IMG/VR virus record: IMGVR_UViG_2654587570_000013
Location: 1 to 35,061 of that record
Source of the DNA: a virus
Taxonomy: Duplodnaviria; Heunggongvirae; Uroviricota; Caudoviricetes
Length of the DNA stretch: 35,061 nucleotides
Strand: one strand, 5' to 3'
The number at the start of each line of letters is the position of its first letter. The first letter of the stretch is position 1. Position numbers and translations under genes: made by a program. The notes below the pieces were generated by a model. It was not told the DNA's origin. It saw nothing but the letters and a program-made list of their open reading frames with translations, and did no database searches. Below, piece after piece: positions 2,764 to 34,755 of this stretch.

Positions 2764-3762
2764 TTAAAGAGCCTCTAAAGGGCTTAAATCGAGTTCTAAG
2801 TCTTCCGGTATTAAATCAGCTAACGGTGCATTCATCCACTGCGATAAATCTCGTTCTATGTCTTCATCACTAATGTAGTTGTTCAGATTGATTGCGTTGG
2901 TATCATCAAAATACATTGGCTTAGATGGGTTGGTGTGGATGTATTCATTGATGAATGATTTAACATCTTTCAGCTTGCTAATCGGTAGCGTTTCTGTGAA
3001 TCCGCTATTCATTACCTTACGTGGGATTTTCTTGCCCTGAATATTCTTTTTAATCCCCATTTCTAAATCACCAGCTTTCCATCCAATGTTAAACAAATGT
3101 GAGCATTCAAAGGTGATTTTCTCGCTGGTGTGCTTCTGGTGTTCTCTTACCCGTTGCATCGGATCTTTGCGAGTGGTAATTCCATATTTGAAAAACTTCT
3201 CGCCAACACGAATTAGATAAAAGTGCATAGAGCGCTGTGCAAACTTGTTTCTGATAACCTGTTTTCTACCATTCTGAATTGATTTAAGTACACCCCTAAC
3301 CAAAGGGCATGTTAACCCACCTTGTCTGCGGTTATTGTGTAAATCACCTTTCTTGTGAATCTTTCCGTGGCACTTACAACGAAGAATTAGTTTAGTGTCA
3401 ACACCCTGATAAGGTTCAGCCAGACCTAACACATCCCACCCTATCGGCTTGTAGAACTTGCGAGCGTTTTCTAAGTGTTCTTCTTCGGTAAATCTAAACT
3501 TCTTCTTAGGCGGTGATACTCTATCTTTGCCAGTAAACTGACCAGTTAGAACATGACTAATACATGGCGTTTTAACCTTTCCGTTAACTTCTATGCAAAC
3601 TTTGGTGTTCTGGAATGGTTTCTTTACAGGAAGCACAAAACCACTGTATAACCATCCATGCGCTTGACAAACTTTAATGATTCTGGTTTCATATTCGACC
3701 GGAGGGGTCGCACGTTTGCTTTTTGCGGTAAATTCGATATCCTTTGCTAAAGTAGTATTCAT
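2764..3762 (-). CDS. GIY-YIG superfamily (T5orf172-like) domain protein, homing-endonuclease-like (332 aa)
   Basis: C-terminal half has FYLIRVGEKFFKYGITTRKDPMQRVREHQ ... GFTETL, resembling the GIY..YIG..R..E pattern. The N-terminal half has two repeats of a C..HG...GL(T)CP zinc-ribbon-like module, as I recall from phage homing-endonuclease-like genes. Assigned from memory, not searched. Confidence 0.5.
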   Translation of the reverse strand: MNTTLAKDIEFTAKSKRATPPVEYETRIIKVCQAHGWLYSGFVLPVKKPFQNTKVCIEVNGKVKTPCISHVLTGQFTGKDRVSPPKKKFRFTEEEHLENARKFYKPIGWDVLGLAEPYQGVDTKLILRCKCHGKIHKKGDLHNNRRQGGLTCPLVRGVLKSIQNGRKQVIRNKFAQRSMHFYLIRVGEKFFKYGITTRKDPMQRVREHQKHTSEKITFECSHLFNIGWKAGDLEMGIKKNIQGKKIPRKVMNSGFTETLPISKLKDVKSFINEYIHTNPSKPMYFDDTNAINLNNYISDEDIERDLSQWMNAPLADLIPEDLELDLSPLEAL

Positions 3763-15328: not shown

Positions 15329-15382
15329 TATTCTTTTCCTTCTATTTTAAACAATAGGGCACATACCCGTAATTCTATTTAT

Positions 15383-15685
15383 TTAGCGGTTGCTCAAACG
15401 TCTATAACGAAGATGAGCGATCCCCCTATTTGTGCTAACGGTAATTACCGCCCCTTGCGGTGCAATACAAGAATGAATCTGTCCCCAATCATGACCCTTA
15501 TGGCTTCCAGAAACACACAAACCATGAATAAGCAATTCAGAGTCACCACCGCCACCACCGGAAGAATGAGCACAGAATGAAATAGTCCCGAAAGCGTCGG
15601 CTGTCCAACCGTTAGGAATATCAAACCATCCCTGATTTGCTTTACCCGCCCTATTCCCCAAAGCGCCATCTACCCAAAATGCCAT
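15383..15685 (-). CDS. glycine-rich small protein, paralog 3 of 3 (100 aa)
   Basis: Shares M..W...FDIPNGW...G-rich loop...GL...WG...V(S/T) with the two upstream genes. TAATG overlap with paralog 2. Confidence 0.7.
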   Translation of the reverse strand: MAFWVDGALGNRAGKANQGWFDIPNGWTADAFGTISFCAHSSGGGGGDSELLIHGLCVSGSHKGHDWGQIHSCIAPQGAVITVSTNRGIAHLRYRRLSNR

Positions 15686-15990
15686 TAGTGCATTCTCCTG
15701 AATTTAAAATAATGCAAGCTACCTTTACCCAATGTAAAGCTAACGGTAGCACCAGCGCCAACTAAAGAACTAGCGCCCCAACTCCCGGCATCAGCCGCAT
15801 GATGACCCGATTCAATCAATCCATTTACGACCAATTCAGAATCAAGATCACCAGCACCGTTAATGGCTTCCATATGAGCAAAAACAATTCCGCATGAATC
15901 AGTAACCCAGCCGTTGGGGATATCAAAATATCCACCATTAGCCCAAATACTAATAGCGTTTGACATTCTTTGATTTATCCATCCAGCCAT
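15685..15990 (-). CDS. glycine-rich small protein, paralog 2 of 3 (101 aa)
   Basis: FDIPNGW motif and C-terminal YFKF, as in paralog 1. Its start lies 2 nt after the paralog 1 stop. Confidence 0.7.
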   Translation of the reverse strand: MAGWINQRMSNAISIWANGGYFDIPNGWVTDSCGIVFAHMEAINGAGDLDSELVVNGLIESGHHAADAGSWGASSLVGAGATVSFTLGKGSLHYFKFRRMH

Positions 15991-15992
15991 AA

Positions 15993-16289
15993 TTAAAACT
16001 CCATGAATTTAAAATATTCAACACCACCTTCACCCCCTAAACCAAAGGAGACGGTGCAGCCAGCAGGAACAAACGAATTTATAGTAGATCCCCAATTGGT
16101 CCCACCACGACGACGAGCAACGGTCAAACCATCTACGTTAATATGTGCATCAGACCACCCACCACCAGCATTATGACGCATTACAGCGACACCAGCACGA
16201 GCAGTACCATAGCCGTTAGGAATATCAAATACATGCCATTTTAAAGCATCGATTTTAGTATTAATTTCGCTACTTACCCAATATCCCAT
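15993..16289 (-). CDS. glycine-rich small protein, paralog 1 of 3 (98 aa)
   Basis: AAGGA RBS. FDIPNGY motif, GGGW loop and C-terminal YFKF. It lies directly downstream of the fibre gene. Confidence 0.7.
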   Translation of the reverse strand: MGYWVSSEINTKIDALKWHVFDIPNGYGTARAGVAVMRHNAGGGWSDAHINVDGLTVARRRGGTNWGSTINSFVPAGCTVSFGLGGEGGVEYFKFMEF

Positions 16290-16327
16290 ATAAGAATCCT
16301 TAGCGGAGATTTCTCCCCGCTTTCCAA

Positions 16328-19300
16328 TTACCCTAATTTAGCTTCAATTGCAGCAAGACGTTCACGAAGAAGTTTATTTTCTTCGCTCATTTCTTGGACC
16401 GCTTTAATTAAAAGCGCGTTCACTGCGGAGTTTGAAATTGTTAAAATTTCTTCTGGGTTATCAAAACCACCAATTTTTGCGGTTTTAACAGCTTCCGGTA
16501 ATACCTCTTGTAAATCCTGTGCGATAATACCAATCTCATGACCTATAACTTCTCGGTCATTAAGAGATTTAACTTTATCGTAGGTTTTAACTTTGAGTTT
16601 ATTTACCTTATCCACCGCATTTTCTTCGTAATCTTCAACATTAATTTTCAGACGACGATCGGAACGAATATAAACATCGTTAAAGTTACCATTACCAGGA
16701 CAGTAAAAAGTACCATCATGATGGAACTCGAATACAGCTTGAGGGTGACCAGCCGCTGGCGATGCCTCCGCAGATCCAACACGAATAATTGCTTGCCCCC
16801 AATTTTGAGGAACACGACGCATACCAAAATCGACGGCAGTTGTATACCCTTGATTGGTGATTAAACTTCTTCCTTTGATAATCGGATAATAACAGTCCGG
16901 TGAAACATAGCCATGATCGACAAATATTGGCGCTTCTAAGCCCCATTGATCACCCCAACCTCCAGATTGGCTAGCAGTCCAACGTTCACCATGAACATAG
17001 AATCGAACGTTATTGACATGAGTCATTTCGACACCTTTTGGACTTAGCGCGATATCCCCCGCGTTTGTAATATTGATAGCAGCATTAGTAGCATAGCTAT
17101 AGAACGCTAATCCATTATCAGCACCACCTTTACCGATATACCAGTTGTTATTATCAGCACAAGTACCCAACAAATATATCGACGAATCGCCCGTTTCGGC
17201 ATTCATGATGATTGCGTCAGAACCACGATTAACTTTAAGTTTCCCGAAGAAGGTGTTTTTAATGGTATTATCACCCAATCGTTCAAATTCGGCTAAAAAT
17301 CCTTTTGAGTCACGAAGGCTTAAAACGTTATTTCGACCTGTATTGCTTGCCCCCCAATGGACGAGTTCCATATAGTCCATAGATTGACGAGAACCAGCTT
17401 TAAAGAAAAGATTGTCCTCAAGACGAGTGCTACCATCAATTCCAAGATGCAAACAGCGTGCGGTCGCTGTGCCACCTAGATCTAATCCACCACCAGCAAA
17501 ATCATAACTAAATGGTCTACGGCTATTCCACCCACCGAAAGAATCACCGTGATCTGTGGAAAGAATATGGAAGCTAGTTCCATCATTACGGAACATCAAA
17601 CCATAATTACCACCTTTAACAGCCAAACGAGCATTTTCAGATAATGCAACTTCGCTATTCATTACAATTTTCTGGCCTTTACCACCAGTAATATGTAATT
17701 CACCATCTTCAATCAGGTTTATCGAGTTTTGACCGTTATCATTCCACCAAATAAAATCTTTGGTTGTTCCATCACCGAAGCCAAACCAGCCATTACGAAC
17801 ATCTTGTCCAGTGCGATAATCCATGAAATTAAAATGGCTTGATTCGTTTGGTCCTCGACGAATATCAATACCAGAATTTCCACCAACACCACCATCCAAT
17901 GTTAATCTCTTGACATGTAACCCGGTTGTTGCTGTCAGCAATAATTCCTGATTTGTATCTTCGTATCCAGTAGCAAGACGATATGCGTTATCATCAACTG
18001 TCTCATGCCAGATAGTGGCAGGAGCAGAACTACGGAAGCGACGCAACATTTTCTTAGCATTTGTTTGCTGTTCGTTCAAATGCTCAATGTCATATTGGCC
18101 TTGATGGTTTCCAGCAAAATTTAACGTTCCACGGTTGCTAAAGTTATTGAACGATGAAATGTTAAGAGCATCAAAAATTTCATCTGCAACAGGTTTTTCA
18201 CCGCCCAGGTATTCAGGAGTATCCAACAGGTTTAAAGAAACACCACCGGAAGAAACTTGATATTCTGCTAAAACAAATCCTGTATGTGCACCATAGTAAG
18301 CGTAAAGATCATAATTGTCGCCATCGGTTGGAATAGCGCAAAAATGTTGTTCATAATGCCAAATAGTATAATACGCATTGAATACAACACCTTTCGGGCT
18401 ATTGTTGCCGCATCGAATCACCAATTCGATAATATTGGCTTGTCCATTCATCCCGACGTTATAACCGTTACCACCAACTAAGCGGATCTTAGCACTACGA
18501 CCGTGTTGCTGTGGCATTGTCAAAGTGCCTAGTTTAAACCAACCACCCTCGATCCCAAAATTAAGCGTCTTCTGGAACAGTCGGTCAATTTCTGCTTTCG
18601 AATATGCGCCAATTTCGGCAGGAGTAGGTTTATCACCTTCATGATACATGCGGTGAGAATATGCCAAATGACCCAATTCATCATAGCCGTATGTTCTTAC
18701 CGTATGAACCGGATTAGACCCATAAGTGAACTCAAAGCCACGAGCATGATTAACACCAGATGGATGCGGAACATGCAAGATCATTGCAATATGACCCGCC
18801 AGGTCATTCATGCGGAATGCACCAAAGTAATCAAGATTACGCGCATTTGGATCATCAAAATAGTTTGCGGTCTTAGACAGCAAATAACCATCAGTATAAG
18901 TGTTTACGTGTTTTTTGATGTACTTGCCATCAGCAGATCCATCGGCTGCATCAATACGGCTTTCTAAGCGTGCCAATTCAGAATCAGTGTAAGACTTGTT
19001 ATTGTCAACTTTGCTATGAATTGCTGTATTTTTGGCTTCAACATCACGGGTTAATGCTGCGACGTTATCCGCTGCCTCTTGCTTATTGGCTGCAATCACA
19101 CCAGTAAGGTTATTGTAGGTGTCAGTTAACTGATTTTCCGCATAGACTTTATTTGCTGCGATAGTGCGGTCAGTTTCTGTCTTAATCAGATCAACTTTGT
19201 CATTGATTGCTTTGTCATTACTTGCGATTGTCGCGTCGGTACGGGATTTAATATCATCAACTTTTTTATTGATGCGGGTATCCAGTTCCTGGGTTGCTAC

Positions 19301-25693: not shown

Positions 25694-27601
25694 TTAGAAC
25701 GATGTTACCCAACTACGGCCTCTATTTGGAGGTCTGACGATGTTTTGACGTTGCGGTCGTGTGATTGGCTTAGTTTCTTCGATTTGCTCGTTAGATTGCG
25801 ATTTAGGAGCTTTTACGGGTTCTTCGACAACGCGGTTTAAGCTGTCTTTCATTGCAATGAGTTTATCCCATGACATTTTTGAAAGGACGTAGCGAGAAGC
25901 CGCATAGCTATAAACCAGACAGTCGAGAGCCTCGTTTCGGGTACTACCTGGATTTTTCACCCAACGCACGCCAGTAGTAGTACGCTTGATGGATTCACTC
26001 AAAAGCTGATCGAGATAATCATCAGGAACGGTTTCTGATATCTCTAAACCAATATGAGGATTGTCTTTCAGGTTTCTAACCAGCATTTCACGAACAGCAG
26101 ATTTACCAACGTTAACACCCAGCATAAGCAATTCATGACCACCTGTGCGGGTAGGTTTAACCGGAATCACTGGAGCATTACCAGATGAACTACCTTTGAT
26201 CGCGTGTAGGTTCTTCCACTTACCGCAAATACGGTATCCGGCTTGAGTGAATCGACCGTTCGATGTATCAAGGAAGCTGGCGAGCATAGGAACACGATCA
26301 CCCGATACAGTAGTAAATTTGGTTTTATGGAAGTTGATTAATCTATCCCATACAGGGGATTCATATCGTTCACAGTTATGATCGTAAAAGCTGCGGTGAT
26401 CCAGAATGTAAACCTTATCTTTCGCTACACCTAAGATGGTAGTTTCTGCGCGATCTAATTGCTGGTCAGTACCCGCACATAAGAAAATCACGTCATCAGG
26501 GATATTCTCGATAGAAACATCTGTTTTGAGTTGTTCCAGTTCATTTGCTTCTACTGCCGTGTCCTGATCGTCGTATACCTTGCCTAACACGGTGTTAAAA
26601 AAGGATTGTAAATCAAAGGATTGCCACGCATGACTAAAATCAACCACACAAGCGCGAATCGTGCTGAAAGGTGAATACAGACGACTGATCCAGAATCCTG
26701 CTACCTCACTTTCACGGGTTGCTCTCCACTCTCCTTGTGCTACTGCCCTGATTCGTTCCCCTTCTGTCCATGCGTTCTTACAGTGGGGGCAAATATAACG
26801 AGCGGTATCAGGATCGGGTAAGTTCTTACCATCAATGTTACGCCATTCAAATTGAACGTTTTCCCACTCGATCACCTGGTGTCTACCGCAATGAGGACAC
26901 GGAACAAAAAACATACGCATATCGCTTGATAACCATTGCTGGTTAATGCTTCCCAGCTTACTGGTCGGGGTACTGGATACGACTAATCGACCTTCATCGC
27001 CAAAGGTAGTTAAACGGTTAGCAGCCAGTGCCACCGGATCACCTTCTTCTGAGGCTGTGGCAGCATCAATTTCGTCAAGTAATCCAACCTTTGCGGTCTT
27101 ACCACGTAGGGTTGATGGGCTGGTAAGCGATACCATGTACAGGAAGTGATTCGTTTTTAACTGGAGTTGGTTGTTGTTGTTAACCGCGTTGCGATCATTC
27201 TTGTCTGTAACCACGTCTTTCAATGCATCACATGCTTCGATAGACGGTCGGATCTTACCCGCGAGATATTGAGACATTTCTTTAGCGGTTGATTGTCCGA
27301 TAATCATATTGCATGGATCGTTAGCCATCTGGTTAAACAGGATACCGTTTAGGATGGTAGTTTTTCCGATCTGCGCACTGGTCATCAGTACATACTTTTT
27401 CTTATTCTCAAGGAAAGGAGCATCAATCATGCCTTTCTGGAATGACAGCAATTTAACTTTATCCCCCGCTTGAGGACCATCTACCAGCACCATATTCGCT
27501 TCGCACCATTCAGACGGAAGGAGCTTAGGCGGTGGAGTGATATATTTTGCGGCATTTTTAAGAATCTTTTTTAATTTTGCCTTATTAGAAATCAGTTTCA
27601 T
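25694..27601 (-). CDS. terL: terminase large subunit, lambda GpA-type (635 aa)
   Basis: Walker [10 protein letters not shown] and Walker B GLLDEID. The paired Cys motifs CPHCGRHQ...[10 protein letters not shown] are typical of GpA-family terminases. The size (635 aa) fits lambda gpA. Confidence 0.9.
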
Positions 27602-27688: not shown

Positions 27689-28285
27689 ATGCTAATTAAT
27701 CAGCAAGAAAGAGATGAATTAGCCTTGTCTTGTACCGATCATGAATATCGTTTACCCGTTAAGCATAAGCATTTAAAAACCGATTACACAACATCTGGGT
27801 TTAGCCGTGAGGAAGCGAAAGAGATTTTAATAGAATTTTACCGTGATAATGGCTATAGAGACGTTCATAACTTCTTTAAGAAGCATCGCACATCACAGAC
27901 AGAGTTTCAGCGAGTCCGTGAGTGGTTTGATTTTGATATCAAGCGTTATTATCGCATTGATGACGGTCCTATCTATCGGTTGCAGTGGAAGCCGATCAGG
28001 GAAGTGTTGAAACAGAAGAGATTGAATCACGCAATTACACGCTATCGTAACGAGGCTTTCAAGAAAGGCTATGGTGATACAAGGGAACTATTCGTTGAAC
28101 TCGCTAACGTGAAGTACAGCCACTATTACAACGATCCTAAAGGGTTCTTTGAAGTGCTTCGCAAGGTTGATATAAGTCGGGGTACATATTATTCACGGTT
28201 GAAGAAGTACGGGATTAAGGCAGAGTTCTTTATGTCGGTTGACGATGGAGAACTTTTTCCGATAAAATGTAAGTCCTCTAAATAA
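27689..28285 (+). CDS. tandem-HTH-module protein (198 aa)
   Basis: AAGGAGG RBS. It contains two copies of the module also found singly in the 77-aa and 59-aa proteins (FYRDNGY..FFKK...FQRVREWF and [27 protein letters not shown]). Confidence 0.6.
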
Positions 28286-28314
28286 AGGTGAACATTCACT
28301 TTAATTTGGAGAAA

Positions 28315-28548
28315 ATGACTATGACTACTAAAGCTACTCGCGGTCGCCCTACCCGTTTTAATCGTGAACAGATGGCTGATATTGCCTACGCTTACTATAC
28401 AGCGGATCGTGGTAAGGAAGCGAAAGAACAGATTCTTAGTGAACATGGGATCTCAATCGCCCAATTCTATAAGAATATGAAGAAGTTAGACATTAAATTC
28501 TATGTTCAGATCGGTGATGGTCAGATCGTAGAAGCAACAGGTTTTTGA
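28315..28548 (+). CDS. small HTH DNA-binding protein (77 aa; alternative start 28321)
   Basis: ATRGRPTRFNREQMADIAYAYY...GISIAQFYKNMKKLDIK is paralogous to the 31655..31834 product. The GGAG position favours ATG 28321. Confidence 0.6.
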   Translation: MTMTTKATRGRPTRFNREQMADIAYAYYTADRGKEAKEQILSEHGISIAQFYKNMKKLDIKFYVQIGDGQIVEATGF

Positions 28549-29935: not shown

Positions 29936-30394
29936 TTACAGCATATCTAAGCCTTCATCATGGCCGTAGAAGCCACCGTGAGAAGAGAAACAGATTGGTG
30001 CGTAGTCGTCGTCATCTTCGTCTTGTTCATCTTGTTCTGGGGCTTCCTGAGCGGGTTGTTTGCCGTAATCAGCCATAATCTGGTCAAGATCAGCGATCCC
30101 ATAGTAAGAGCCTAAATCAACGTCATATTCACGAACATCAAACGGCAGGTCATCACGAACAATAATTGCTGGAATATCGTTGTATTGAAGACGACCTTCA
30201 TCAGTAAGACAGTCGATGATCACAGTAGGACGACCATTTCGTTTTAAAGCGTAGAAAGCAGTTGAGTAGTTGGAGTCTTCGGAATGACGAATGATGTTAT
30301 AACCACGATTAGCGAAAACTTCTAGCATATGGAAGTTACCATAGTTTTCAGAGTCCAGACCCAGAAGTACGAAAGGAGTTTTAGTATTGATCAT
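29936..30394 (-). CDS. hypothetical early protein with acidic C-terminal tract (152 aa from ATG 30394)
   Basis: AGAGGA RBS before MINTKTPF. The N-terminal alpha/beta-like domain is followed by EAPEQDEQDEDDDDY. It is the first gene leftward of the ORF-free control region. Confidence 0.6.
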   Translation of the reverse strand: MINTKTPFVLLGLDSENYGNFHMLEVFANRGYNIIRHSEDSNYSTAFYALKRNGRPTVIIDCLTDEGRLQYNDIPAIIVRDDLPFDVREYDVDLGSYYGIADLDQIMADYGKQPAQEAPEQDEQDEDDDDYAPICFSSHGGFYGHDEGLDML

Positions 30395-30593
30395 AGTGGT
30401 ATCCTCTAAAAGAAAGTGAATCAAACAAATTACACTAGTATTTATACGAGAAAAAAATATCTATTTGGAAGTGATTGGATTCAGTCGGCTTCGCCTCCTT
30501 CATGATTTTGATTAAATCATCATCAAAACGAAGGAGTATCTTTAGAATATAAGAATCTTTCTTTTGGAGAAATAATAATCAGGAAGCAATTTG

Positions 30594-30837
30594 GCAACCG
30601 AAGGTTGCAATCCCGAAGGGATACCAATACCTTTCTAGAAAGTGATTGTTACTCACTTCGTTCGTTTACTAGAATCAGTTAGTAACTAGCATTAAATCCC
30701 TTTCTAAGAAAATCCTTTCAAAAGTGAGTGAACGCCGTAGGCGTGAACGTGAGCGAAGCGAACTATCCAATCCCTTTCGAATCCTGCTTGCAGGTCTTAG
30801 AAGGTGTTGATGGGCGCTTCGCGCACGGCTACGCCGT
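30594..30837. repeat. field of GC-clamped mini-hairpins with 3-nt loops
   Basis: GCAACC-GAA-GGTTGC (30594-30608), ATCCC-GAA-GGGAT (30610-30622), ACGCC-GTA-GGCGT (30732-30744), GC-GAA-GC (30753-30759), GCGC-TTC-GCGC (30814-30824) and ACGGC-TAC-GCCGT (30825-30837). A perfect palindrome CTTTCTAGAAAG sits at 30631-30642. Confidence 0.7.
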
Positions 30838-30967
30838 ATTCTTTTTGCGAGATCTTTCTTGAACGTAGTGAGAGAAAACGAGCAAAAAGGAGAACGTTAG
30901 TTCGAATTTTATATTCTATGGTCTGTGGGGTGAAATGTTTTTCAAGATCATACACTTATGAGATTGA

Positions 30968-31092
30968 AGTGTAGGGTTAGTGTAGGTGTGTAGGTTTCAT
31001 AGTGTAGGTTTGAGGGTGTTATAGTGTAGGTTTACTGGCTAGTGTAGTGTAGGCCAATCCCTTTAAAGTGTAGGTTTGTAGTGTAGGGTTTT
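30968..31092 (+). repeat. iteron array: 8 direct copies of (A)GTGTAGG(TTT)
   Basis: GTGTAGG starts at 30969, 30980, 30988, 31002, 31024, 31047, 31068 and 31081, all in the same orientation. Three copies are exactly AGTGTAGGTTT. Confidence 0.85.
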
Positions 31093-31093
31093 C

Positions 31094-31110
31094 ATCAAAA
31101 ATTTTGATAG
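31094..31110. repeat. AT-rich palindrome ATCAAAAATTTTGAT; 15-mer CAAAAATTTTGATAG repeated at 31245-31259
   Basis: The 15-nt palindrome is perfect. The identical 15-mer occurs at 31096-31110 and 31245-31259. Confidence 0.7.
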
Positions 31111-31195
31111 AAAATTCTTGTATATTATTTAATCAGAAAATCACCAAAAATCGCGGTAACTGCATGATTTAAAAGGAATGGTCAAAAGGTCACCG

Positions 31196-31204
31196 TGCTA
31201 TAAT
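31196..31204 (+). promoter_or_regulatory. candidate extended -10 promoter (TGcTATAAT)
   Basis: TGCTATAAT is a perfect extended -10 element. No good -35 is present. Confidence 0.4.
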
Positions 31205-31284
31205 AGGTTATAAAGGTTGATAATCGTTATCCGCCATTTTCACACAAAAATTTTGATAGTCTTTTCTCGTTTAGGTCAAGTGTA

Positions 31285-31313
31285 TTGACAACTGTCAAGG
31301 ATTATTTTATACT
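31285..31313 (+). promoter_or_regulatory. strong sigma70-type promoter (rightward)
   Basis: TTGACA (31285-31290), a 17-nt spacer, then TATACT (31308-31313). Confidence 0.65.
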
Positions 31314-31447
31314 TTTTATCGCTGGTGGGGGTTGAAATTTTCTAAACAGCCCCCATATAGATGATAAGCAAGATTTTTCGTGTATAAATACATGCATGAA
31401 ATGATTGTTCACTTCTGAAAATCCCCTGATTCACTGTTAACACATAC

Positions 31448-31475
31448 AGCACTGGTTAAACACACAGTGCTTTTT
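31448..31475 (+). terminator. intrinsic terminator inside the rightward leader
   Basis: AGCACTG / 10-nt loop / CAGTGCT followed by TTTT, about 155 nt downstream of the predicted start. Confidence 0.65.
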
Positions 31476-31533
31476 CGATTAAATAATGTACGAAATGATT
31501 AATTATTAATCTTCTCTTTAGCAATTCGTGCTC

Positions 31534-31559
31534 CCACTGATCGGATATACAGTGGTTTT
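31534..31559 (+). terminator. second hairpin with U-tract in the leader
   Basis: CCACTG / 10-nt loop / CAGTGG followed by TTTT. It has the same CACTG...CAGTG design as the first. Confidence 0.45.
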
Positions 31560-31654
31560 ACAGGGTTTTCTGAAATGACTTTTATAAATAGAAGTATCGA
31601 GGGCGAAAAGCTCTTTTTATTGTCCTTATTAATCCACATTTGAGGAATCTACTT

Positions 31655-31834
31655 ATGGCTAGACCTGTTAAGTTTACTCGTGAAATGATTGTTGATATTG
31701 CTAAACGCTTTTATGGCGATACTGAACGAGGCGGCGAGAATTTCTTTAAGAAGGAAGGAATTGATAGAAGCGGATTCTATAAGTTAATGAAGAAATACGA
31801 AATTCAGATAAAGATTAACGTTCAAGTTTGTTAA
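31655..31834 (+). CDS. small HTH DNA-binding protein (59 aa)
   Basis: GAGGA RBS 8 nt before ATG 31655. MARPVKFTREMIVDIAKRFY...GIDRSGFYKLMKKYEIQ is paralogous to the 28315..28548 product. Confidence 0.6.
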   Translation: MARPVKFTREMIVDIAKRFYGDTERGGENFFKKEGIDRSGFYKLMKKYEIQIKINVQVC

Positions 31835-31950
31835 TCCACTTTCACTGAGAATTATATGATGGCTTTAAAAATAAAAAGCCTCCCTTGTTGCAGCAAAGGA
31901 GGCTTGAAATGAACAATTAAAACTAACACAGCATTCAGGAGTATTTATAA

Positions 31951-32946
31951 ATGAAAAATTCTAAGCGCATCACCTTCAACCTGTTTATTAAATCCAACGG
32001 CAAACTGAACATTACCGTCATGGAAGGTAAAGCAAGCAAACAAGACAAATCCTTTGAAGTAGTATCCGGTAAGACTCTGACCGAAATGCGTCAGAATGCT
32101 GGCATCAAAGACGGTGCTGAATGGCAGATCACTAACCGTTTCGACAAACGTCACGTTAAACCTACACTGGTAGAAGGTGAATCCGTTTATTGCTTCGCTC
32201 GTGCTGTTAAAGCCGATGAAACTTACTATCTCGCTGTTGTTAAAACTGCTTCCGGCTTCCGTGCTGTAATGCATCACAAGAGCAAGCGTAACGAATACGG
32301 CGTAGAGACCCAGGAAGTCGCAAAACGCTTCCGTACTGTTGCTACCGAATCCACTGTAAAGGATGTTTCTGGTACTGTTAACACCGCTAAAGGCGGTTCC
32401 TTCTACAACCACGCATTACAGGTTACTTCCTCCTTCTTCTGCAAAAAAGAAGCACAGAAAGAAGTTTCTCCGGTAGTAGTTGAAGAAGTTAAAGAAGAAG
32501 TTGCAGTGGTTGAATCTTCCGAAGTTGAAGCACTGAAAGCACGCATTGCTGAACTGGAAGCTGAAAACGCATCTCTGAAAGCTGAACTGGCAGCACAGGA
32601 AACCACTTTCGAAGTAGCAGCGGTTGAAGTTGAAGCAGTTGAAGAAAAATCCATTGATGAAGAACTGGAAGAACTCCTTAACTATCGCTGGGGTGTTGTT
32701 GCAGAAGTAGAACAAGAAGTTGCTCCGGTAGTTGTTCCGGTTGAAGTTGAAAAAGAATCCGCACCTGTTACTAACTTTGAATCCCTGCGCAATAACTTTA
32801 TGGCTAAATTCAAAACCACTTGGGAAGATACCGAAGAAGAACAAGAAGAGATTGAAGTAAACGAAGACGAGATCCGCGAAGCACAGATGGCACTGCATGA
32901 CGCTATCTACGACACCAACTACAGCGCCTACGCATACGCAGCTTAA
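31951..32946 (+). CDS. abundant-type acidic coiled-coil protein of unknown function (331 aa)
   Basis: AGGAG RBS. A basic N-terminal ~170 aa domain is followed by a coiled coil (ALKARIAELEAENASLKAELAAQE) and acidic V/E-rich repeats. Extreme codon optimisation leaves a single TTA/CTA/TCA-type codon (the TTA at 32416) across 31951-32946, keeping the antisense frame open. Confidence 0.75.
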   Translation: MKNSKRITFNLFIKSNGKLNITVMEGKASKQDKSFEVVSGKTLTEMRQNAGIKDGAEWQITNRFDKRHVKPTLVEGESVYCFARAVKADETYYLAVVKTASGFRAVMHHKSKRNEYGVETQEVAKRFRTVATESTVKDVSGTVNTAKGGSFYNHALQVTSSFFCKKEAQKEVSPVVVEEVKEEVAVVESSEVEALKARIAELEAENASLKAELAAQETTFEVAAVEVEAVEEKSIDEELEELLNYRWGVVAEVEQEVAPVVVPVEVEKESAPVTNFESLRNNFMAKFKTTWEDTEEEQEEIEVNEDEIREAQMALHDAIYDTNYSAYAYAA

Positions 32947-33204: not shown

Positions 33205-33228
33205 AAAAAAGGGACTCCGAAGAGTCCC
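33203..33228 (-). terminator. intrinsic terminator (leftward)
   Basis: Minus strand reads GGGACTC-TTCG-GAGTCCC followed by TTTTTTTT. Confidence 0.7.
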
Positions 33229-33303
33229 TAGTAAGTTTAGGTTAGGTTTGCACAACAAAGATGAGGTTATAATGAACATAATGCTACATTATTCTTTAAA
33301 GCC

Positions 33304-33330
33304 AGAAAAATAACCGCCCCGAAGGGGCGG
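33304..33330 (-). terminator. intrinsic terminator (leftward)
   Basis: Minus strand reads CCGCCCC-TTC-GGGGCGG followed by TTATTTTT. Confidence 0.6.
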
Positions 33331-33904: not shown

Positions 33905-34456
33905 TTAAGACACATCAAATTCATCGTCTTCTTCTGGTTCTTGTTCCGGTTCATCCATTAATGGTAATTCTTCTTCCTCGTCTTCTCCTAAATCCGCATT
34001 TTCGAACAAGTCCCCTACTTCATTTAAACGACGCTCGATGATCTCCCTTAGCTTATTCTTCAATGTTTTCTGGTCGGTGGCAGATTCAAGAATTTCTAAA
34101 GCGTCGATTGTGGCGATCTGCAAAATAGTCTGTTTCACCTTCCCGCAATATTCCGCTAGTTCCTGCTCAACATACCCGACCGGAATCAGGAGGTTCATTG
34201 CTTCCTGGTTCTCTCGTTCGGCTGCATCTGCTAATGCTCTCTCACGGCGTAATTTCTCTACGTCGATTTGTTCCTTGACAGTAGTTTCCCTGAGTGGACT
34301 GATGATATTTTTTGCTACCCACTCGGTCCCCTCTTTGAGTGGCACGCGGCGGGTATTGGTATTGTAAGGTAGTCCCCTTTCTAACCATTTCTTAGCGGCG
34401 TTAATTGTATAGCCGTATAAGCGGGAAATTTCTGTAAGGGTTAATTCTTCTTTCAT
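33905..34456 (-). CDS. terS: terminase small subunit, lambda Nu1-like (183 aa)
   Basis: AAGGAGG RBS. The N-terminal winged-HTH LTLTEISRLYGYTINAAKKWLERGLP and the VEKLRRE...ADAAERE helix resemble Nu1 as I remember it. The C-terminal tail is acidic. Confidence 0.6.
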   Translation of the reverse strand: MKEELTLTEISRLYGYTINAAKKWLERGLPYNTNTRRVPLKEGTEWVAKNIISPLRETTVKEQIDVEKLRRERALADAAERENQEAMNLLIPVGYVEQELAEYCGKVKQTILQIATIDALEILESATDQKTLKNKLREIIERRLNEVGDLFENADLGEDEEEELPLMDEPEQEPEEDDEFDVS

Positions 34457-34755
34457 CCGGTTATCCTCCTTTAAATTTGCGTAAAATTATTTATCTGATC
34501 TGCGCATTCAGGAGAGCGCCTAAAACGCTTTATAACGAAGGGAAAGATCGAGGCATGGAAAGGGATTGGCGTGTGTTAATAGTCGCGTAGCGACCGCGCT
34601 GGTGGGCTGCACTGCACCTGTTTTGAAATCTCACACGCACATCAAATACCGGGGTGCCGAAAACTCCCTTTATTTCACCCGTGGAACAGTACCTTTTGAT
34701 TTTGTCAAGTCTTTTTTATAAATAATCGAAAATATTTTTCACACGAGGGCAAATC

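Follow-up and report, generated by a model that had tools for sequence, protein, structure and literature searches.

Conserved C-GNA-G mini-hairpins beside iterons in a gene-free gap of an Escherichia coli prophage

A hairpin cluster in the prophage gap

The subject of this analysis is a cluster of short GC-rich hairpins in a window of 35,061 nucleotides, the whole stretch of DNA analysed (IMG/VR record IMGVR_UViG_2654587570_000013, positions 1 to 35,061), which is nearly the whole of an Escherichia coli prophage of ~35.3 kb. Related copies occur in 57–58 of 5,426 complete E. coli genomes and are chromosomal in every case. In the relative from strain DEC5A, hicB is interrupted by the element, whose left end encodes a large serine recombinase. 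The left 27 kb of the prophage contains lysis, tail, head and portal genes together with a lambda-type gpA terminase, and the right 8 kb contains only ORFans apart from a Rha-type regulator and a small-terminase-like gene. The hairpins lie in this right part, inside a 1.2-kb gene-free gap (30425-31639) that divides a leftward operon (open reading frames (ORFs) of 162 and 51 amino acids (aa), and Rha) from a rightward operon (ORFs of 64, 331 and 80 aa).

A mechanical scan of the window for hairpins with at least 4 bp, at least three G-C pairs and a 3-nt loop returned 20 GC-clamped triloop hairpins, five of which fall within 245 nt (30594-30837). The expectation is ~0.11 per 245 nt, corresponding to a Poisson P(≥5) of 1e-7, or 1.4e-5 when corrected for the number of windows; for the C-GNA-G type alone the corrected P is 6.5e-10. 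All five cluster hairpins are closed by C-G and have a G-N-A loop on one or the other strand, as against 0 of 13 in the structural genes. An earlier note, made from the sequence alone, had described six GC-rich triloop hairpins in otherwise AT-rich DNA. Five of these are perfect and lie where it placed them, the sixth (H4) has a stem of only 2 bp, and the surrounding DNA, at ~39% GC, is only moderately AT-rich.

On the + strand, H1 (GCAACC-GAA-GGTTGC, 30594-30608) and H2 (ATCCC-GAA-GGGAT, 30610-30622) form a tandem pair, with H2 starting one base past H1. They are followed on the same strand by H3 (ACGCC-GTA-GGCGT, 30732-30744) and the minimal H4 (GCGAAGC, 30753-30759). In the next two hairpins the GNA loop is read on the − strand: H5 (GCGC-TTC-GCGC, 30814-30824) has GAA on that strand, and H6 (ACGGC-TAC-GCCGT, 30825-30837), which abuts H5, has GTA. 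Two further mini-hairpins were absent from the earlier note. H0 (GGC-TTC-GCC, 30487-30495) has a 3-bp stem and reads as GCGAAGC on the − strand, and a weak hairpin, AC-GTA-GT (30863-30869, + strand), lies inside the recurring motif GAACGNAGTGAG. The GNA reading is therefore on the + strand for H1–H4 and on the − strand for H5, H6 and H0. Many hairpins of the family are abutting pairs of 25–29 nt.

The cluster also contains longer symmetries. Inverted-repeat arms of 21 nt (30740-30760 and 30815-30835) are 81% complementary and flank a centre, CCTGC-TT-GCAGG (30783-30794), that presents 5'-CTG on both strands; the long hairpin formed by these arms is the minimum-energy fold of the window's sequence as single-stranded DNA. 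A helix joins 30651-58 to 30723-30, with 7–8 bp when read directly, and a 15-nt inverted repeat (87%) joins 30543-30557 to 30904-30918. An imperfect palindrome centred on CTAG (30636/7) spans 30614-30660, its left arm overlapping H2, and the motif GAAAG(G/T)GATT occurs in both orientations between 30626 and 30778.

Conservation of the hairpins among relatives

Relatives were collected from E. coli genomes, IMG/VR and metagenomes, together with two more distant assemblies, L144 and L143, whose homologues of the 331-aa protein are 77% and 46% identical, respectively, to that of the window in the N-terminal domain. One metagenome scan was made, and half of it was taken up by matches of the anchors to a conserved but unrelated E. 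coli gene. A search with the large terminase against 185,579 species-representative genomes found no relatives in other species.

The earlier note had set stem conservation in related phages as a check on its proposal, and the stems are indeed conserved. Of the 28 stem positions in H3, H5 and H6, one varies among 11 distinct sequences of the window's allele, compared with 138 of 223 surrounding non-hairpin positions (Fisher p = 9e-10). The single change is among the 10 stem positions of H3, where C to T gives G.T on the + strand. None of the eight stem positions of H5 varies, and only its loop centre changes, from TTC to TAC; likewise, none of the 10 stem positions of H6 varies, and only its loop centre changes, from TAC to TGC in L143. 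Column-wise pair counts on a four-sequence MAFFT alignment were uninformative for H1 because its replaced stems were misaligned, and position-by-position reading was used alongside the 11-sequence test.

Reading the remaining hairpins in this way shows a similar pattern. H1 carries a central-base change from GAA to GCA in L150 (GCAACC-GCA-GGTTGC), and is replaced outright by GCCCC-GTA-GGGGC in L144 and by GCAGC-TTC-GCTGC in L143. The 13 nt of H2 are unchanged in those allele-A and allele-B relatives that have its module, L143 included. In L143 and L144, H4 shows a compensatory G-C to A-T change (ACGAAGT) that keeps the local hairpin and weakens its pairing with H5. At the position of H0, relatives have GGGC-AAA-GCCC, GGGC-TAAA-GCCC, GGGC-TATC-GCCC or GCCCC-GTA-GGGGC, with the stem kept and the loop free. 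In allele B, H3/H4 and H6 are replaced by GCCAC-GCA-GTGGC, CGTC-GCA-GACG and GGGC-TAC-GCCC, the first two at H3, and a third allele has GACGCTC-CCT-GAGCGTC abutting TGC-GAA-GCA. Even the weak hairpin at 30863-30869 has counterparts, as ACGAAGT in L144 and as GAGCGTAGCGA within a 6-bp outer stem in allele B. Across the prophage family and phage RB49, 21 of 24 distinct triloop hairpins follow the C-GNA-G rule on one strand. Constraint on the loop G and A is strand-specific, with the central N drifting, and the hairpins are real structural units under strong purifying and compensatory selection, not products of chance.

The longer pairings behave differently. The ~100-nt imperfect palindrome proposed in the earlier note is present in the window, as is its centre, but it is not kept in relatives: L144 and L143 favour folds other than the long palindrome, which survives only partly in allele B, and pair counting for the long hairpin did not exceed a column-shuffle control (124 of 500). 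The centre becomes CCAGC-N8-GCTGG in L143, a compensatory replacement, and has no counterpart in allele B. The helix first placed at 30649-30658 and 30722-30731 is really the 7–8-bp pairing given above, and the 9-bp match of 30544-30552 with 30909-30917 is part of the 15-nt inverted repeat; neither has a counterpart in L143, L144 or the allele-B loci. Because the long palindrome and the long-range helices are not conserved in these relatives, the ~375-nt multi-branched RNA that had been offered as one explanation is unlikely. The CTAG-centred palindrome, for its part, occurs in one relative as a perfect version with 21-bp arms.

If the inverted repeats were instead duplex sites for a dimeric phage or host protein, serving as operators or architectural sites of a divergent-promoter region, hairpin formation would be irrelevant. 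The density of other repeats in the gap, with GAAAG(G/T)GATT in both orientations and the dyad of module M1 described below, would suit such sites, as would the several small helix-turn-helix-like paralogues encoded nearby and the fact that hairpin alleles travel with iteron and protein alleles. However, unlike stems interchange at one position (GCAACC, GCCCC or GCAGC at H1; ACGCC or GCCAC at H3), which one protein could not read. What is kept is pairing together with the loop G and A, as expected for the sheared G.A pair of a folded hairpin and not for a symmetric dimer site, and the H0 loop is 2, 3 or 4 nt long with its stem kept, which would change the spacing of half-sites. We therefore consider duplex sites an improbable explanation.

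The paralogues in question are three small proteins (encoded at 31640-31834, 28288-28548 and 27689-28285) that share the motif R(G)RP.KFTRE ... FYK.MKKY and are helix-turn-helix-like in look; the 198-aa member has two copies of the motif. None of the three matched an entry in any family library.

A counterpart of the hairpin array is found in lytic phages of the RB49 type (Krischvirus). Just left of H1 lies a 75-nt module, M1 (30507-30581, + strand), consisting of a TTTTGAT-N9-ATCAAAA stem and a conserved tail, which is nearly invariant across the prophage alleles and is not a consensus sigma-70 promoter. Two copies of M1, at ~80% identity (L033, 1501-1575 and 1651-1725), occur in an unannotated intergenic region of 413 bp that precedes a DprA-like gene in every one of the 59 Krischvirus genomes. 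The same region contains ACTCC-GTA-GGAGT abutting TCGC-GAA-GCGA, a layout matching H6-H5 when these are reverse-complemented, apart from two compensatory pair changes, and a third hairpin, TCCGC-TAC-GCGGA, with its GNA on the other strand. The two regions are thus homologous, sharing M1, which is duplicated in Krischvirus, and the same abutting pair of a 5-bp GTA and a 4-bp GAA hairpin, although one belongs to lytic T4-type phages and the other to a temperate prophage. The copies in the 59 genomes are too alike for a covariation test. No iteron array was seen on reading the 413-bp region, in which no repeat search was made, and tblastn of the early-region proteins against the RB49-type loci returned nothing. 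A proposed relationship between the 152/162-aa neighbour of the hairpins and the RB49 DprA-like protein was dropped when comparison showed none. Elsewhere in the prophage, tail-fibre DNA (~15370-18880) matches genes for the distal subunit of the long tail fibre in Krischvirus phages, KFS-EC among them, at up to 94% identity, which shows recent exchange between the temperate siphophage-like element and lytic T4-type phages.

The RB49-like group is also the one in which PeSLs were described, as consensus sigma-70 promoters joined to a G-run/C-run terminator stem-loop, repeated through the genome, that mediate modular shuffling (PMC2839356). The shared 75-nt module and hairpin design raise the question of whether the hairpins are recombination-prone cassette boundaries or selfish palindromes of this kind, with no dedicated function. 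Mosaicism in the gap is high: it draws on at least four or five modules of iterons and three of hairpins, with points of exchange close to the hairpins; it has received insertion sequences, and its palindromes are perfected or decaying in individual relatives. Against this, both the promoter and the G-run/C-run terminator of a PeSL are absent at the hairpins, the element is single-copy per prophage, and passive boundaries would not give 1 of 28 versus 138 of 223 variable positions, changes confined to loop centres, or compensatory pairs. Cassette boundaries are also, in our judgement, an improbable account. The insertions are of the IS3 and IS5 families and lie just right of H2 in several E. 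coli genomes (L003, 2023-3185; L007, 2114-3094).

Iterons, the 331-aa protein and neighbouring genes

Eight direct iterons with the core GTGTAGG (30969-31087, + strand) start 130 bp right of the hairpin cluster. Directly after the last iteron comes the most AT-rich 40 nt of the gap (31094-31133, 87.5% A+T), a candidate unwinding element. By the measure of at least three direct repeats with an adjoining AT-rich stretch, these two features together resemble an iteron-type origin.

Among 30 loci, where the homologues of the 331-aa ORF are 313–341 aa long, the type of iteron matches the N-terminal type of the ORF without exception. Three types are represented: the core GTGTAGG occurs with the N-terminus MKNSKRITF..., GGGGCAA with MLFSANFF..., and CGGGGA with MKQNNFSIT.... 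The 60-aa ORF that lies between the iterons and the 331-aa gene assorts independently (L002, L004, L022), indicating that the match between iterons and protein is functional and not mere linkage. On the strength of this co-variation the 331-aa ORFan (31951-32946, + strand) is a putative iteron-binding protein and a candidate initiator. The protein types share an architecture of a variable ~170-aa N-terminal domain, a middle part that is coiled-coil and acidic, and a short tail at the C-terminus, with a tail motif common to two of the three types; as judged from sequence, this would fit an initiator with a swapped specificity domain. The family as a whole ranges from 313 to 349 aa and has at least three specificity alleles, each with its own upstream iteron family (L008-L031, L143, L144, L149). 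Further iteron families of the CTTGTACATC and ACCTCCTAC types also occur, and the alleles probably number five.

Two rightward promoters lie downstream of the hairpins on the + strand, an extended -10 element, TGCTATAAT (31196-31204), and TTGACA-17-TATACT (31285-31313). In the other direction, a conserved TATAAAT on the − strand (~30437-30443) is likely the -10 of the leftward operon. Seen from either divergent promoter the hairpins are therefore upstream, and the comparison revealed no conserved promoter directed into the cluster. The leader of the rightward operon (31196-31639), served by the two promoters, one of which is overlapped by the palindrome TTGACAACTGTCAA, is ~320–430 nt long and holds two terminator-like hairpins (31448-31476 and 31599-31620), which suggests control by attenuation or antitermination. 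A 12-bp terminator-like hairpin (31876-31905), scored on the − strand, follows the 64-aa gene. Two intrinsic terminators lie on the − strand further right: GGGACTC-TTCG-GAGTCCC followed by T8 (33209-33232), and CCGCCCC-TTC-GGGGCGG followed by TTATTTTT (33314-33330), the latter being one of only two GNA/TNC-type hairpins outside the cluster.

No replication or repressor gene was recognisable across the 35 kb in searches of the early-region and left-end ORFs against Pfam, PHROGs, NCBIfam and PADLOC; the same searches gave no match to a primase or helicase family, and none appears in the annotation of a relative. Family searches of the neighbouring ORFs gave only Rha, terminase, portal, capsid, serine recombinase, endolysin and an endonuclease-like ORF. 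This last, of 332 aa (phrog_681, 2764-3762), is missing at the same place in the DEC5A relative and probably arrived by insertion, as a mobile or accessory gene; the tail module of DEC5A, for its part, carries a NUMOD3-domain gene as an insertion. The 162-aa product of the leftward operon's first gene (29936-30424) belongs to a family confined to E. coli and Shigella. Its structure is modelled with confidence over residues 1–110 (pLDDT 80–90), and the predicted fold is a small alpha/beta domain of the P-loop-kinase type, followed by a disordered, highly acidic tail; no Walker A motif was seen by eye. A tRNA/tmRNA scan found nothing.

The earlier note had also suggested packaging, and a cluster that forms part of the cos site of the lambda-type terminase would have some circumstantial features in its favour: the terminase is of the gpA type, the palindrome centre has the two-fold symmetry of a nicking site, and a further hairpin built to the same plan, GTCGC-GTA-GCGAC, precedes the small-terminase-like gene. 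This seventh hairpin (34582-34594, + strand), already recorded in the earlier note, does exist there and is identical in two relatives (L001 and L144) despite differing flanks. Yet nothing places a cos or packaging site at the cluster itself, which is 3 kb from either terminase gene and is linked physically and allelically to the iterons and their putative binding protein, not to the terminase; allele B lacks the palindrome centre even though it shares the terminase module. A packaging role for the cluster is accordingly very improbable. The site is most likely in the intergenic region upstream of the small-terminase-like gene (34457-34755), where GTCGC-GTA-GCGAC and the block CACACGCACATCAAATACCGGGGTGCCGAAAACTCCC are kept in relatives. 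The small-terminase-like gene (33905-34456) stands 6.3 kb from the gpA-type large terminase (25694-27601), and this interval comprises the whole putative early/control region, opposite-strand genes included, an arrangement that is unusual for a lambda-type packaging module.

Four further identities were tried and dropped: a retron msr/msd, given the lack of a reverse transcriptase; a type III toxin-antitoxin repeat array, which would have a different repeat form and a toxin; a repetitive extragenic palindromic (REP) element or miniature inverted-repeat transposable element (MITE), given that the element is single-copy; and attP, since the att sites are at the prophage ends.

Likeness to single-stranded-DNA origin signals

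When closed by C-G, GNA triloops have exceptional stability in DNA (PMC13037366), and tandem mini-hairpins bind the single-stranded-DNA-binding protein SSB poorly; known cases are the G4-type primase origins, RSF1010 ssiA and the hairpin promoters of phage N4 (PMC13037366, PMC8567376). RSF1010, in which the role of ssiA and ssiB has been described (PMC13037366, PMC8567376), bears a close likeness in design and setting. We examined an IncQ oriV (locus L145) directly. Its iterons are followed by an AT-rich stretch, and ssiB (CCGC-TGC-GCGG, GCA when read on the complementary strand) and ssiA (ACCC-GAA-GGGT) occupy opposite strands, a GCGGGC-AAA-GCCCGC hairpin separating them. The prophage likewise has C-GNA-G hairpins on complementary strands as an inverted repeat (H3/H4 on +, H5/H6 on −), placed beside direct iterons and an AT-rich stretch; H2 and ssiA both contain the 9-mer CCCGAAGGG, and a GGGC-AAA-GCCC-type hairpin occurs in both systems. 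The differences are also clear. The prophage encodes no recognisable RepB' primase (archaeo-eukaryotic type) or RepA helicase, it has more hairpins (6–8), mainly as abutting tandem pairs, and its strand order around the palindrome, + then −, is the reverse of that of ssiB and ssiA. A blastn search of the gap against 72,556 plasmids found no match, and apart from the 9-mer nothing in it resembles the ssi sites over their 40 nt, which include a 5' hexamer that RepB' binds. The prophage element is close to the RSF1010 ssi sites in design and setting, but is not a member of that family.

In the G4-type (DnaG-dependent) complementary-strand origins of phages G4, St-1 and alpha3, and in primosome assembly sites, stable hairpins, including the GCGAAAGC type, resist SSB and mark the start for host primase (PMC13037366). 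A host primase start is the only priming route for a phage without its own primase, which is the point of likeness; those phages, however, package a single-stranded genome, whereas the prophage is that of a double-stranded temperate phage, and the two elements have no sequence similarity. The early promoters of the N4 virion RNA polymerase have a 5–7-bp stem and a G-N-A loop (GGA or GAA), are extruded from duplex DNA and are read on one strand (PMC13037366). Stem and loop geometry, the features compared, is shared by the prophage hairpins, but the 35-kb prophage yielded no gene for an N4-type virion RNA polymerase. With iteron-type origins, such as lambda ori and those of plasmid Rep/iteron systems, the locus has in common its direct iterons and AT-rich stretch, along with a protein, variable in its N-terminal domain, whose specificity seems matched to the repeats; it differs in having the iterons upstream of the gene and not inside it, and in a protein that falls outside the known initiator families. 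In lambda ori, too, a palindrome lies near iterons.

The reading that we tentatively favour is that the hairpins are strand-specific single-stranded-DNA signals in the replication-origin and control region of the prophage, ssi-like in kind and using host priming. That the locus is an origin, that the hairpins fold in single-stranded DNA and that they serve priming are all points that we infer from sequence comparison and from analogy with the systems above. On this model the 331-aa protein would bind its eight cognate iterons and the DNA beside them would open. The C-GNA-G mini-hairpins, mostly as tandem pairs of 25–29 nt, would then snap shut on each separated strand, H1–H4 acting on the + strand and H5, H6 and H0 on the − strand. 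Owing to their unusual stability in DNA and poor binding of SSB, the folded hairpins would stay as SSB-free landmarks, marking the start for priming or primosome activity and helping to keep the region open. The priming activity would be that of the host, as no phage primase is recognisable. The occurrence of GNA hairpins on both strands fits single-stranded-DNA signals better than one transcript. Among the options that the earlier note had listed, a single-stranded-DNA signal for priming is the most plausible, because the iterons, the AT-rich stretch and the specificity-matched protein look origin-like.

Several observations weigh against this proposal. The absence of a recognisable phage primase is one of them. 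The 331-aa protein has no match to a known initiator family, to any other family or PDB entry or to a known fold, no homologues outside the prophage family and no usable structure model, and it could be a transcription regulator, since the iterons lie just upstream of a promoter. There is no DnaA-box cluster, and the hairpins are separated from the AT-rich stretch by the iterons, unlike the arrangement in RSF1010. The DnaG start triplet of G4-type origins, 5'-CTG, is present on both strands of the palindrome centre here and in L143, but the allele-B spacer has no CTG or CAG. Three of the triloop hairpins, with loops AAA, CCT and TAA, fall outside the GNA rule, and L017, L021 and some other relatives lack one or other hairpin module, so that no single module is indispensable. 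All named relatives are from E. coli or Shigella, and the phylogenetic depth is correspondingly small. The last two points concern RNA: as RNA, the region 30480-30940 folds more stably than shuffled sequences on both strands but better on the + strand (z = -5.3) than on the − strand (z = -3.1), and H5-H6 with the following T-run resemble a terminator in the window's allele.

These two points belong to the main rival, in which the hairpins act in RNA as stabilising, processing or protein-binding stem-loops, a role that is possible, if rather unlikely. Such an RNA could be a long leader of the leftward operon, through the 162-aa ORF, the 51-aa ORF and the Rha-type regulator, or a small + strand RNA ending at H5-H6, comparable to the RNA-based immunity of P1, P4 and N15. 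An antirepressor-type (Rha) gene in the leftward operon, a weak promoter-like site on the − strand (30934-30906) and the scoring of H6 followed by ATTCTTTTTG as a + strand terminator are consistent with one or other form, and one H3 variant pairs only as G.U on the + strand; several one-sided changes in the long hairpin also remain G.U. However, when intrinsic terminators were sought as a hairpin with a T-run kept in relatives, only H6 qualified, and only in the window's allele: L143 has lost the T-run, and in allele B it is shifted. No conserved promoter leads into the cluster, and the leftward -10 is positioned to give a short leader. Rfam 15 gave no match at gathering thresholds in the window, and at E values up to 10 over 30300-31950 it gave only chance-level matches, none of them on the hairpins. 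The long-range helices that a large RNA would use are not conserved, and the changes in the long hairpin do not exceed the column-shuffle control. Finally, the T..C loops keep their T and C as the middle base drifts, a constraint for which a single transcript would not account, and the exceptional stability of C-G-closed GNA triloops is known for DNA (PMC13037366). The three other explanations considered above, duplex sites, recombination cassettes and cos, are less likely than a role in RNA.

The favoured reading, of single-stranded-DNA signals that use host priming, bears on a structure with few documented roles, namely G4-type origins, RSF1010 ssiA/ssiB and N4 promoters. Here GNA mini-hairpins form a conserved multi-copy array in a double-stranded temperate phage, and natural variation preserves the features that folded DNA would need. 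A broader and decidedly speculative proposal, which we think rather doubtful, is that tandem C-GNA-G mini-hairpins are a portable, undescribed class of strand-specific origin signal, shared by temperate E. coli siphophages and lytic RB49-type myophages. With such a signal, a phage that lacks a primase, a helicase and a known initiator could draw on host priming at an iteron origin under the control of an ORFan family with interchangeable DNA-specificity domains. Should the array act instead as RNA, it would constitute a new phage regulatory RNA. If it serves in priming or as an origin signal, it would account for the replication of a 35-kb phage without recognisable replication genes, give a function to a new family of iteron-binding proteins with several specificity alleles, and provide compact, orthogonal origin parts.

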